Of a stretch of 64,000 nucleotides of DNA, positions 17,900 through 52,784 are shown in pieces (the first letter of the stretch is position 1; the number at the start of each line of letters is the position of its first letter). This DNA is from a virus. The translations under genes were made by a program, and so were the position numbers. The stretch spans positions 18,059-82,058 of IMG/VR virus record IMGVR_UViG_3300050166_000039. One strand, written 5' to 3'. Below the pieces are notes generated by a model, which did not search any database, was not told where the DNA came from, and saw nothing but the letters and a program-made list of their open reading frames with translations.

Positions 17900-18470
17900 C
17901 GATATTTTTGTATTCAAAAACGCGGTAACTGGTCAGCTCTTCACTAAGTTAAGAGAGCTGTTTAATACGGCTCCGATTAATAGAGATCAGTTTAAGAAAG
18001 AGCTAGAAGAGAGTCATGTTATTGAGCTGAATCAGGTACTCAAAGAGAAGATAGAAGAGCCTATTTACAAGTACCTATTAGACTTAAAACTGGACTCCAG
18101 ACCCGATCTATTAGATTATAGTGGATGCTTTAACACTGATCTTGAATATTATGAGAAGTATAAAGAGTTTAGAAACTCTTTAAGAGACTCGAATCCAATT
18201 CAGGTTGAAACAGCAATGGCCAGAGAGTTACATAGAGGAAATTTAGTATACTATAGTAATTTCGTAGAATGGAAAGGCCATCTCAATAAATTCGGTATCT
18301 TCGTTAATGTCTCAGAGGGCGGCGAGAACACAACAACCCTAAAGTTTCCTATACAACAACAAGAGTGCACTCTATTACAAGGAGATATTGTAGTTTCACC
18401 CGGAGGTATCACACATCCATACTTAATAGATGTTATTAACGGCAAATTAAAATTCATCCAGGCACTATGA
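17883..18470 (+). CDS. 2OG-oxygenase-fold-like protein (paralog A1)
   Basis: FP.Q...L.QGDIVVSPGGITHPY; paralog of 20104-20697. Confidence 0.5.
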   Translation: MEILGNDIFVFKNAVTGQLFTKLRELFNTAPINRDQFKKELEESHVIELNQVLKEKIEEPIYKYLLDLKLDSRPDLLDYSGCFNTDLEYYEKYKEFRNSLRDSNPIQVETAMARELHRGNLVYYSNFVEWKGHLNKFGIFVNVSEGGENTTTLKFPIQQQECTLLQGDIVVSPGGITHPYLIDVINGKLKFIQAL

Positions 18471-30909: not shown

Positions 30910-31002
30910 ATGCAACAAATTTGCCTACATATTACGAAAAACAATTATTGGTTTAGCAATGAACCGATGACGGTCGATCGTATGCCCGGGCTCCAGAGTT
31001 GA
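30910..31002 (+). CDS. Putative attenuator leader peptide (30 aa) MQQICLHITKNNYWFSNEPMTVDRMPGLQS
   Basis: ATG 21 nt after the promoter, TGA TAA double stop, 19 of 20 amino acids; last codons hold the antiterminator strand CGGGCTC. Confidence 0.75.
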   Translation: MQQICLHITKNNYWFSNEPMTVDRMPGLQS

Positions 31003-31340: not shown

Positions 31341-31415
31341 TGCGGGATGCGTAGAAAATGGTTATCTCATCGGTCTCATAAGCCGAGGTTCCGGGTTCGA
31401 GTCCCGGTCCCGCAA
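31341..31415 (+). tRNA. tRNA-Met(CAU), initiator-like
   Basis: TGCGGGA/TCCCGCA acceptor, TCGGT-CTCATAA-GCCGA. Confidence 0.82.
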
Positions 31416-31776: not shown

Positions 31777-31878
31777 AGTCAGGTGGCGGAATGGTAGACG
31801 CAGCCCTGCACACAGGAACTGAATCGAATATGAGTGCAGCATTTAAGATTTGTACAGGTTCGAATCCTGTCCTGGCTA
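31777..31878 (+). ncRNA. tRNA-Leu-scaffold RNA copy 1 (no canonical anticodon arm)
   Basis: AGTCAGGTGGCGGAATGGTAGACGC...TACAGGTTCGAATCCTGTCCTGGCT around a unique insert. Confidence 0.7.
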
Positions 31879-35218: not shown

Positions 35219-35303
35219 GGTTAGGTGGCGGAATGGTAGACGCAACGTGGGACCTTCTGTTGGTGCAGCACGATAGATACAGGTTCGAATCCTGTCCTGA
35301 CTA
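35219..35303 (+). ncRNA. tRNA-Leu-scaffold RNA copy 4
   Basis: GGTTAGGTGGCGGAATGGTAGACGC...TACAGGTTCGAATCCTGTCCTGACT; CGTG/CACG stem with a 19-nt loop. Confidence 0.7.
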
Positions 35304-51087: not shown

Positions 51088-51316
51088 TACGGCAAACTGT
51101 TCTCAGTGTCTAATAGAGTTAGACATAAAAGAGATGTACTTGATACAGCTTCACATGCACAGGAGCCACCCAGAGAAAGGCACCTATAATACTTATTATT
51201 GTAAAGCGTGCACGGAGAAGACGAAGGGCACAGAGTGGCAAATTTCAGTAATTAGAGAGCCTAAGTTACCGAAGCCAGCGAAAGAGAAAAAGAGCGTGAA
51301 ACAAAAAGAAAAGTAG
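51068..51316 (+). CDS. Small Zn-finger protein
   Basis: CSQC...CKAC. Confidence 0.5.
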   Translation: MAKRAINTANCSQCLIELDIKEMYLIQLHMHRSHPEKGTYNTYYCKACTEKTKGTEWQISVIREPKLPKPAKEKKSVKQKEK

Positions 51317-51350
51317 ATATATAAGTTATATTAAAAATAAATAAATTGAT

Positions 51351-51572
51351 ATGTTAACATTAATCATCATTTTAACTGCATTCGTTGCTATCTCTGCGTT
51401 CTTTATCATTAAGAAGCCGGTTGCATCTGACGTAAAGACTACATCTGAAGATGTTAAAGCTGCAGGTTGGATGGACTTAGGTGGCGATCCAAACGCAAAC
51501 AAGTACACTAGCAAAGTAAACGAGTCTCTTCAAGAGAACGACGCTAAGGCTAAGAAAAGTAAAAAGAAGTAA
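51351..51572 (+). CDS. Small membrane protein
   Basis: N-terminal TM helix, basic tail. Confidence 0.55.
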   Translation: MLTLIIILTAFVAISAFFIIKKPVASDVKTTSEDVKAAGWMDLGGDPNANKYTSKVNESLQENDAKAKKSKKK

Positions 51573-51617
51573 TACTTCTTGGGCTGTTAGCTCTAGCCTA
51601 GCTAACAGTTATTTAAT

Positions 51618-51922
51618 GGGGGTATAGCTCAGTTGGCTTAGAGCACCTGCCTTGCACGCAGGGGGTCGTGGGTTGATAAAGAGCCCATTTAAGTAGTGAT
51701 ACTTAAATAAAAACTGGATGAATTGCTGGAAATCTAAGTCAGAAATGATATGACAATCAGCAGCCAAGCTTAAGATACATCTTAAGAAGGTTCAGAGACT
51801 AGTGGAGAAGTAAAGTCTTCTTAATAACCACATTAGCGTCCAGCATCTCATTAGAGATGAAGATATAGTCCGACACTCTTTCGAAAGAAGAGATTAACCG
51901 TAGTCGAATCCCTCTACCTCCA
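51618..51922 (+). tRNA. tRNA-Ala(UGC), intron-containing (exons 51618-51673 and 51904-51922)
   Basis: GGGGGTA/TACCTCC with G3:U70, CCTGC-CTTGCAC-GCAGG; splicing restores GGGTTCGAATCCC. Confidence 0.9.
51674..51903 (+). ncRNA. Group I self-splicing intron (ORF-less, 230 nt) in the tRNA T-loop
   Basis: P AATTGCTGGAAA, Q AATCAGCAG, R GTTCAGAGACTA, S AAGATATAGTCC, P1 GTGGGT/GCCCAT with U.G at the splice site, terminal G 51903. Confidence 0.9.
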
Positions 51923-51924
51923 CT

Positions 51925-51954
51925 AAGGCCTGTGAAATTTCACAGGCCTTTTTT
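51925..51954 (+). terminator. Intrinsic terminator
   Basis: AAGGCCTGTGAA..TTCACAGGCCTT plus T-run. Confidence 0.8.
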
Positions 51955-52013
51955 ATTTTACAATGTATTTAGTTCGATTGCTATATTCTCCACATTTCTT
52001 AGATATATAGAAT

Positions 52014-52784
52014 ATGAAAGAAATTATAAAATGTGATGAGTGTGGTGAAATATTCGACAATAAGAAGATAAAAGCTAACCATGTTAGGTGGAAACACAGA
52101 GATCAATCTGCATATATAATTAAAGCATCTTCTATACTTAAAGATTCTTATAAAAAGAAACATGGGATTATTTTAAAAGAATCTGTGGAATGTTCATGTG
52201 AAACATGCTCTAATATAATTGAGATAGAATATAGAGAAAATAAAAAGAAAAAACATTACTTTTGTTCTAGATCTTGCTCCAATTACAGAGGAAAAAGATC
52301 AATCGAAACTAAACAAAAAATTTCAGAATCTTTAAAACAAAAAAGTACACTAAAAAAATGTAAATGCGAACATTGTTTAAAAGAATTTGAACACAATAGA
52401 CCTAAAAAGTTTTGTTCAACCAATTGCCATACACGATTTAAAAGAAAGGATAAATCAGGACTATCTAATTATAGAGTGGATGCATCATTTAAATTTAATT
52501 TGTCAGATTATCCAGGTGAGTTCGATTTCAGTTTAGTTGAAAAGTACGGATGGTACAGTGCAGCAAATAGAGGCAATAATTTAAACGGTGTTAGTAGAGA
52601 TCACATGGTAAGCGTCAAATATGGATATGATAATAATATTGATCCAAAAATAATTTCTCATCCTGCTAATTGTAAATTAATGAGACATAATAATAACGTT
52701 TCAAAATTATCGAATTGCTCGATTACAATAGAAGAACTTCTAGAAAAAATTAAAGCCTGGGATGAAAAATATGAAACCTTCTAA
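52014..52784 (+). CDS. Free-standing HNH-type homing endonuclease-like protein
   Basis: Zn motifs (CDECG..H, FCSRSC, FCSTNC), NUMOD3-like RSIETKQKISESLK, C-terminal SRDH...HPANC.L....N..K; AT-richer than neighbours. Confidence 0.7.
   Translation: MKEIIKCDECGEIFDNKKIKANHVRWKHRDQSAYIIKASSILKDSYKKKHGIILKESVECSCETCSNIIEIEYRENKKKKHYFCSRSCSNYRGKRSIETKQKISESLKQKSTLKKCKCEHCLKEFEHNRPKKFCSTNCHTRFKRKDKSGLSNYRVDASFKFNLSDYPGEFDFSLVEKYGWYSAANRGNNLNGVSRDHMVSVKYGYDNNIDPKIISHPANCKLMRHNNNVSKLSNCSITIEELLEKIKAWDEKYETF

Follow-up and report, generated by a model that had tools for sequence, protein, structure and literature searches.

Group I introns of bacterial tRNA genes have been described in tRNA-Leu UAA, tRNA-fMet, tRNA-Ile CAU and tRNA-Arg CCU and comprise 21 classes, all of them inserted in the anticodon loop, which is the only loop that the Williams 2020 survey searched (bioRxiv 10.1101/2020.01.27.920355). 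A T-psi-C loop (T-loop) location is a known form for the genes of transfer-messenger RNA (tmRNA), where 883 sequences fall into four subsites; the published introns at position 2, between loop bases 1 and 2, come from Anaerolineae and one Myxococcota genome, and none from phages (PMC11915505). Here we analyse a 64,000-nt stretch of viral DNA, called the window below (IMG/VR virus record IMGVR_UViG_3300050166_000039, positions 18,059 to 82,058), in which a 230-nt element at 51674-51903 interrupts a tRNA-Ala(UGC) gene within the T-loop, at the U54/U55 bond. Very probably, this element is a working self-splicing group I intron, with the neighbouring open reading frame (ORF) probably linked to its spread. 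By our reading, position 2 of the tmRNA introns is this same bond.

The locus shares several traits with the intron-form tmRNA genes, namely an intron in the 7-nt T-loop of an alanine-identity (G3:U70) domain, a -1 U paired to G in the P1 helix and a terminal G; moreover, the nearest phage relative of the window intron splits a tmRNA T-loop. However, the host gene is here a decoding tRNA with a D arm, an anticodon arm and the anticodon UGC. The intron is thus outside the tmRNA-intron class by its host gene, yet at least one member of that class is a relative by sequence similarity. Like the bacterial tRNA introns, it has a P1 built from a tRNA stem strand and makes tRNA folding dependent on splicing; unlike them, it occupies the T-loop, and an additional stem, an IA-like trait, stands between its P7 and P3', whereas the classical tRNA group I introns belong to subgroup IC3. 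The splicing chemistry is ordinary, as for any group I intron. The T-loop site is new for a decoding tRNA, the known group I T-loop introns having been published for tmRNA, and we found no group I intron in the T-loop or T-arm of a true tRNA or of a phage in the full-text literature, outside which most subscription journals fall.

In phages, free-standing homing endonucleases are known to stand beside ORF-less introns (collaborative, or trans, homing), as T4 mobE does with the nrdB intron and I-TevIII (PMC2790892) and F-CphI with the psbA intron of S-PM2 (PMC6083498); T4 SegB is a homing endonuclease located in a tRNA cluster (PMC2330249). As with mobE and F-CphI, the window combines an ORF-less phage group I intron with a separate nuclease-like gene beside the interrupted gene; the family of this ORF is linked to a single target gene, that of tRNA-Ala, within a tRNA cluster, and S-PM2-type psbA introns are sequence relatives of the window intron. 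Unlike mobE and F-CphI, the ORF family of the window belongs to no Pfam family, and its nuclease role is one that we infer.

RESULTS AND DISCUSSION

A tRNA-Ala gene interrupted in the T-loop

When the intron was removed in silico (51673 joined to 51904), ARAGORN called a tRNA-Ala(tgc) with G3:U70 and A73. Exon 1 ends in ...GTGGGT and exon 2 begins at 51904 with TCGAATCCC; the predicted ligated junction is ...GUGGGU followed by UCGAAUCCCUC in RNA (...GTGGGT followed by TCGAATCCCTC in DNA), and the spliced T-loop reads UUCGAAU. The anticodon arm is complete within exon 1, and the insertion point lies 17 nt downstream of it. CCA is not encoded by the gene, CTA standing after A73. On the unspliced genomic DNA, ARAGORN called nothing at this locus with the intron option on or off, and the Rfam tRNA model gave merely a truncated 32-bit match. 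An earlier note, made from the sequence of the window, had described a tRNA-Ala(UGC) with G3:U70 interrupted between 51673 and 51904 by a 230-nt element and had predicted that standard tRNA finders would probably miss it: every coordinate holds, and so does the prediction. The same note had considered the T-loop site unusual, the introns of bacterial tRNA genes being typically found in the anticodon loop, which agrees with the literature cited above; it omitted that the T-loop is a known group I site in tmRNA genes, with its four subsites (PMC11915505).

Features of a canonical group I intron

The Rfam group I intron model RF00028 matches 51664-51893 over its full length (model positions 1-253) with 104 bits and an E-value of 6.5e-26, the curated cut-off being 50 bits. 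This covariance-model search bears out the earlier description of the element as a group I intron. It is the sole group I intron in the 82-kb record and contains no ORF. The helices (Table 1) were set from the Rfam alignment, the minimum-energy fold and manual reading, all of which agree; the fold recovers P1-P6, P7.1, P8 and P9, with a z of -3.8 against shuffles. The pairing of P7 is our own assignment, and its strands fall in the conserved Rfam blocks GUUCAgAGACUA and AAGAUAUAGUC. An extra P7.1 stem is a hallmark of group I subgroup IA in the established classification, and from its predicted structure the intron appears IA-like. Neither a sensor domain nor an extra aptamer is present in the Rfam match or the fold, which show a minimal core.

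In P1, the splice-site wobble pair is U51673.G51683 (Rfam alignment), and U51674 pairs with A51682. It is worth stressing that P1 and the 5' strand of the T-stem use the same bases. The T-arm and P1 are therefore mutually exclusive, and tRNA maturation depends on splicing.

Four copies covary in the intron and in the tRNA

Three more copies were found, in a 183-kb IMG/VR contig (L006, also L344), a 3.2-kb metagenome contig (L195) and a 149-kb IMG/VR contig (L345), with RF00028 scores of 101.2, 98.5 and 103.2 bits, and in all four copies the insertion is at the identical internucleotide bond. We tested covariation on the four-copy alignment, with 65 intron pairs and 500 shuffles. The intron structure has 96.9% of its cells paired and seven pairs changed on both sides (two in P1, two in P3, two in P7.1 and one in P9, of which P3 belongs to the core); none of the 500 shuffles matched these pairing values, and every slid register was far worse. 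Changes in P3 run from U-A through U.G to C-G and from C-G to U-A, and all five pairs of P7 are invariant. So are the U.G splice pair of P1 (U51673.G51683) and the terminal G (G51903), both of which the earlier note had identified, in 4/4 copies, with a variable 3' tail before that G.

The cloverleaf that spans the intron has five pairs changed on both sides, including 49-65 and 51-63 in the T-stem and 6-67 and 7-66 in the acceptor stem, with G3.U70 invariant across the four copies. In L345, the T-stem is AUCGG/CCGAU versus GUGGG/CCCUC, and the internal guide is altered to match, so that two P1 pairs covary with the T-stem. That the same exon bases covary with two partners is what would be expected if P1 and the T-stem are used in turn. 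On this comparative evidence, the helices of the intron and those of the tRNA are both under selection.

The window and L345 share 93.6% identity in the intron core, 80% and 63% in the exons, 75% in the ORF and ∼60% in the flanks; among the phages that keep the element, flank identity is ∼60-67%. The intron cores of the window and of the 183-kb relative are 98.7% identical despite a G+C content of 38.6% versus 31.3%. Such a high core identity in dissimilar surroundings would fit recent lateral spread, very strong constraint, or both.

Contigs from RNA libraries support excision at the predicted ends

We aligned the contigs (Logan) of four freshwater metatranscriptome runs to positions 51300-52400. 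A 246-nt contig from the RNA library of run X11 lies on 51674-51904 with one mismatch and continues into GATAAAGAGCC (equal to 51675-51685), while its other end stops aligning exactly at 51674. It thus reads once around the 230-nt intron and past its own start, G51903 being joined to T51674. Such a junction is what a full-length circle would give by either route, attack of the terminal G on the 5' splice site or its displacement of the added G; otherwise hard to explain, it supports an excised full-length circular intron whose ends are exactly those predicted. Run X10 belongs to another study; there, the 3' tail of a variant intron continues into GATAAAGAGCCCAT, a junction of the same type. 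Contigs identical to the window, of 229 nt (X10) and 177 nt (X14), cover exon 1 into the intron; one RNA contig begins at 51608. The contigs of the four runs contained no exon-exon joint and no coverage of exon 2 or of the ORF. Short, modified mature tRNAs assemble poorly, which makes the missing exon-exon contig uninformative either way. Altogether, excision of the intron at the predicted ends is supported by these assembled contigs.

Table 1. Features of the split tRNA-Ala locus (window coordinates)
Feature	Position	Strand	Basis or remark
tRNA-Ala(UGC) exon 1	51618-51673	+	tRNA positions 1-54; ARAGORN after in-silico splicing; cloverleaf covaries in 4 copies
Parts of exon 1			Acceptor GGGGGUA, D arm, anticodon arm (UGC 51653-51655), variable loop, T-stem strand GUGGG, U54
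P1	51668-51674 with 51682-51688	+	T-stem 5' strand, U54 and U51674 paired to internal guide
P2 hairpin, GUGA tetraloop	51689-51706	+	Rfam alignment, fold, four-copy alignment
P3	51714-51720 with 51837-51843	+	Encloses P4, P5, P6/P6a and P7.1 hairpin
P4	51724-51729 with 51757-51762	+	
P5	51738-51741 with 51751-51754	+	
P6/P6a	51763-51775 with 51780-51791	+	
P7 pseudoknot, guanosine-binding helix	GACUA 51797-51801 with UAGUC 51866-51870	+	Pairing assigned here
P7.1, extra hairpin between P7 and P3'	51802-51831	+	
P8	51844-51859	+	
P9 hairpin	51876-51892	+	Followed by 11-nt tail
Terminal G (omega G)	51903	+	Last intron base
tRNA-Ala exon 2	51904-51922	+	tRNA positions 55-73: UCGAAU, T-stem 3' strand, acceptor UACCUCC with U70, A73
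Hairpin and T-run resembling an intrinsic terminator	Hairpin 51925-51950, T-run to 51960	+	Directly 3' of the tRNA
256-aa free-standing ORF	52014-52784	+	Proposed homing endonuclease; starts 91 bases after the tRNA

Introns related to that of the window in other genes

A blastn search of the intron against phage records showed that its core (P3-P9) occurs at 70-78% identity in several host genes, among them nrdA of Pseudoalteromonas phage J2-1, a terminase gene of Vibrio phage 1.187.O and psbA of cyanophages S-SRM01 and S-PM2, as well as in an unannotated gap of the tRNA clusters of enterobacterial jumbo phages. By score, and by identity among the hits spanning about half of the query, the best phage match is LR756501.1 (L005), from a 735-kb uncultured phage, with a core 78.5% identical to that of the window. 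Its intron splits the T-loop of a phage tmRNA (L005:1454-1720), which ARAGORN calls after in-silico removal of the intron; the exons end in ...CAGGGUU and start with CGAAUCCCUG, followed by an acceptor strand with U70. The intron apparently lies one bond further on than in the window, at U55/C56. Its tail, TATTTCA, has no G directly before exon CGAAUCC, so either the terminal-G rule is seemingly unmet or the 3' site is elsewhere; the tag peptide given by ARAGORN is unusually long, at 33 aa. The ORF behind the split tmRNA shares its N-terminal 110 residues with the ORF of the window (41% identity, E 1e-17), and the C-terminal domains of the two differ. Such domain shuffling is typical of homing endonucleases.

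Two of the jumbo-phage gaps each contain an unannotated tRNA(CAU) split by a group I intron, in Klebsiella phage Muenster (MT708547, L342:1725-2060, ∼302825-303160; 104 bits) and in Escherichia phage Turkey5 (PQ471516, L343:1750-2060; 95 bits), and the same blastn match was seen in TH47, KP13-7, phiKp_21 and RCIP0023. The records show just a gap at these genes, between tRNA-Ser and tRNA-Asn in Muenster and between tRNA-Ser and the HNH gene in Turkey5. Downstream of the intron, both phages have an annotated HNH endonuclease gene, immediately adjacent in Turkey5 and beyond the intervening tRNA-Asn in Muenster. These introns are of a related family (core 71-73% identical), lie in a phage tRNA cluster and have an endonuclease-like gene downstream, as in the window; unlike that of the window, they are inserted in a different tRNA after position 36, the classical anticodon-loop site. 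The window ORF shows no sequence relationship to the HNH gene that follows the Turkey5 intron.

Further T-loop introns were sought with the pattern AGATATAGTC-N(10-40 or 41-70)-GTCRANTCC. The two spacings gave 35 and 29 loci in IMG/VR, and only the contig of the 183-kb relative rebuilt a tRNA on in-silico splicing; in a genome contig collection there was no true case among the at least 120 matches listed, with a few ARAGORN hits devoid of a group I intron. As these patterns require one exact P7 motif, absence elsewhere is not implied. The 21-nt pattern of the spliced T-arm (variable loop to T-loop, without the following CTC) is common in viral contigs and too unspecific to reveal an intron-less allele. 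In 151 sampled Chloroflexota genomes, group I introns were found in 23S rRNA, anticodon-loop tRNAs and protein genes and none in tmRNA.

The neighbouring ORF belongs to a family associated with tRNA-Ala

The N-terminus of the ORF downstream of the tRNA (Table 1) carries a zinc finger of C2H2-like type together with other Cys-pair modules, and its C-terminus has an HNH-like block, RDH...HPANC..H..N..K, that is invariant. In an alignment of 44 homologues, Cys pairs of the N-terminal half are invariant, as are D196-H197, N219, H225 and N228. The ORF matches phrog_23051 at 2.8e-32 and HNH PHROGs weakly, at 1.2e-6 and 4e-4, and had no sequence match in the PDB. A protein collection held 1083 homologues, nearly all unnamed, and an identical ORF is present on a 259-kb contig. 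For the AlphaFold model, which is confident (pLDDT, the predicted local distance difference test, of 89), Foldseek on the whole model returned nothing but zinc-finger arrays with E > 0.07. The fold matches obtained with VIA-align are all weak (Z ≤ 4.8): a C2H2 finger (Z 4.8, with a root-mean-square deviation of 6.6 over 50 aligned residues), the nuclease domain of BrxU (Z 4.1, 3.7 over 84 residues) and Gme HNH (Z 3.4, 5.2 over 72 residues). From its motif and these weak matches, the ORF is a likely, putative HNH-like nuclease.

We scanned 80 viral loci encoding a relative of the ORF for adjoining tRNAs. An intact tRNA-Ala directly adjoins the ORF in 45 of them, upstream in 36 (gap 17-94 nt) and just downstream in nine, and Ala accounts for only ∼9% of the distinct tRNAs at these loci. 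The intron is present only in L344 and L345. This indicates that the ORF family is a free-standing gene associated with tRNA-Ala, for which the intron is an occasional passenger. At the distant loci with a GATase neighbour, no tRNA was found nearby.

Some of the intron-less tRNA-Ala genes beside the ORF family have non-canonical T-loops (L346:2337-2410, L349:2362-2435, L353:2385-2457, L386:2398-2470, L401:2186-2260 and L409:2279-2353); the sequences at these six loci are AUCGUAA, AUCGUAC, AGCGUAG and CUCGCAU, versus UUCGAAU in the window. Among the ORFs preceded by an intron-less tRNA-Ala, those nearest to that of the window (L346-L349) fall in this group. Escape from cutting through an altered T-loop (e.g. 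ATCGTAA) was considered and not retained, the frequencies (8/41 versus 49/522 among other tRNAs, p = 0.055) being borderline and insufficient.

Alternative explanations

Several observations weigh against a working intron that spreads with the help of its neighbour. The T-stem carries a U50.U64 mismatch in the clade of the window, P10 has only ∼2 bp by manual reading, and no sigma-70-like promoter was found upstream of the tRNA-Ala gene. The circle junction comes from assembled contigs reaching 12 bases past the junction, where the rule of the alignment tool is 31, and RNA libraries can hold DNA, so that exon-intron contigs are no proof of transcription. As to the ORF, no Pfam family matches it, the nuclease-like domain included; its nuclease identity is drawn from a motif, weak PHROG matches (1e-6) and weak folds (Z 3.4-4.1), and most of the tRNA-Ala genes adjacent to its relatives are intron-less, which indicates that the ORF does not need the intron. 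The T-stem mismatch and the short P10 would suit a decayed, splicing-dead intron that has turned the split tRNA-Ala into a pseudogene, the phage using the tRNA-Ala of its host. We regard such decay as very improbable, since every core helix is intact at 104 bits, compensatory changes in the helices of intron and tRNA across the four copies point to selection on both structures, the circle junction occurs in RNA libraries at the exact predicted ends, and the element persists in phages with flanks of just ∼60-67% identity.

A functional intron could also splice one bond further on, at U55/C56 (5' exon end 51674, 3' exon start 51905). In the window copy T51674 equals T51904, so that cuts at 73/904 or 74/905 yield an identical product, from which the site cannot be told; the circle junction, which has a T between G51903 and G51675, is alone compatible with either site, and the related tmRNA intron of LR756501 apparently uses U55/C56. 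However, the intron would then end in U, not G, and U51674 pairs with A51682, not with a G. Moreover, in the L006, L195 and L345 copies the exon T is followed by A or G, and only U54/U55 restores the loop there; this fixes the site at the bond named by the earlier note and makes the shifted cut extremely improbable. Nor do we give much credit to the view that the intron is mainly a device of its host gene, gating the supply of tRNA-Ala or hiding the gene or its precursor from a T-arm-directed nuclease, with an ORF unrelated to spread. This view would accommodate the presence of a single tRNA-Ala gene in both long records, the dependence of maturation on splicing that follows from the exclusion between P1 and T-stem, and the location of most homologous ORFs beside intron-less tRNA-Ala genes. 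It is nevertheless very unlikely, given a minimal core without sensor domain or extra aptamer, an intron core far more alike between genomes than its surroundings, and sister introns in unrelated genes (tmRNA, nrdA, terminase, psbA and tRNA(CAU)), which is the pattern of a mobile element.

Proposed mechanism and implications

For the self-splicing, mobile intron that we favour, the following course can be proposed. In the precursor, the 5' strand of the T-stem and U54 would be paired to the internal guide as P1, and the T-arm could not yet form. Free guanosine would attack after U54, at the U.G pair; the terminal G51903 would then dock, and the exons would be ligated in vivo between U54 and U55. 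Ligation would restore the loop UUCGAAU and allow the T-arm and the tRNA elbow to fold, with end trimming, CCA addition and T-loop modification presumably next, and some of the released intron would circularize at full length. As DNA, the intron probably travels with, or uses, the neighbouring zinc-finger/HNH-like ORF. By analogy with mobE/I-TevIII and F-CphI/psbA, the product of this ORF would probably cut tRNA-Ala (or tmRNA) genes that lack the intron in co-infecting phages, and both ORF and intron would be copied across during repair.

A T-loop site in a decoding tRNA would constitute a second class of site for tRNA group I introns. It has a consequence for annotation, in that tRNA finders silently drop such genes and a phage with >22 tRNAs appears to lack tRNA-Ala. 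It also bears on RNA folding: a T-stem strand is borrowed for P1, and the elbow would form only after splicing, which makes the locus a clean system for working out in what order splicing, RNase P cleavage, CCA addition and T54/psi55 modification occur. The T-loop introns of tmRNA are linked to phage tRNA clusters by the sister introns of tRNA-Ala and of a phage tmRNA, together with nuclease genes that share a DNA-binding-like module and have different C-terminal domains; through this link the origin of the tmRNA introns becomes testable.

A bolder proposal, which we put forward as a possibility and hold to be rather doubtful, is that intron and zinc-finger nuclease gene together make up a single composite mobile element that targets the DNA of alanine-type T-arm/acceptor regions and could move between the tRNA-Ala and tmRNA genes of different phages, and perhaps those of hosts as well. 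Unsplit tRNA-Ala or tmRNA genes of competitors would be cut by the nuclease, and the intron would make the copy of its carrier uncuttable while the canonical T-loop is kept in the mature RNA. If true, this would be the first worked example of tRNA-tmRNA cross-homing and would provide a route for the origin or spread of tmRNA T-loop introns.

Host phage, role of the tRNA and minor observations

The record is an 82-kb IMG/VR virus, estimated to be ∼31% complete, with >22 tRNA genes. The whole stretch is present in two freshwater metagenome runs, which may be the source of the record. The earlier note had remarked that alanine is missing from the rest of the tRNA set and from a leader peptide. 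Both absences are borne out: no second tRNA-Ala was called in the 82-kb record, and alanine is the only one of the 20 amino acids absent from the 30-codon ORF at 30910-31002 (MQQICLHITKNNYWFSNEPMTVDRMPGLQS), the putative leader peptide. No other tRNA-Ala was called in the 183-kb relative (28 tRNAs), and no tmRNA was called in the 82-kb record, where the additional Rfam tRNA matches are Asp, CAU or tRNA-like RNAs. Among the Ala codons in the long ORFs of the window, GCA is the most frequent, and it is the one read by the anticodon UGC. To judge from these gene calls, the split gene is the candidate tRNA-Ala of the phage, usable only upon splicing.

Downstream of a small ORF (51351-51572) and just before the tRNA, positions 51581-51613 contain a perfect 9-bp hairpin (CTGTTAGCT / AGCTAACAG) followed by TTATTT. 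This hairpin leaves no space for a sigma-70-type promoter, and the tRNA-Ala is therefore probably made by read-through or by processing of a longer transcript.

Elsewhere in the window, the Rfam tRNA model matches 31777-31878, 35219-35303 and 31348-31415, none of which is called by ARAGORN or is a tRNA-Ala; two of the three share a Leu-type frame with long inserts at the place of the anticodon arm. Finally, in one of the phage tRNA clusters that carry a homologue of the ORF, a match to the Rfam freshwater-1 RNA (RF02979, 85 bits; L396:1857-1918) overlaps the 5' end of that homologue.

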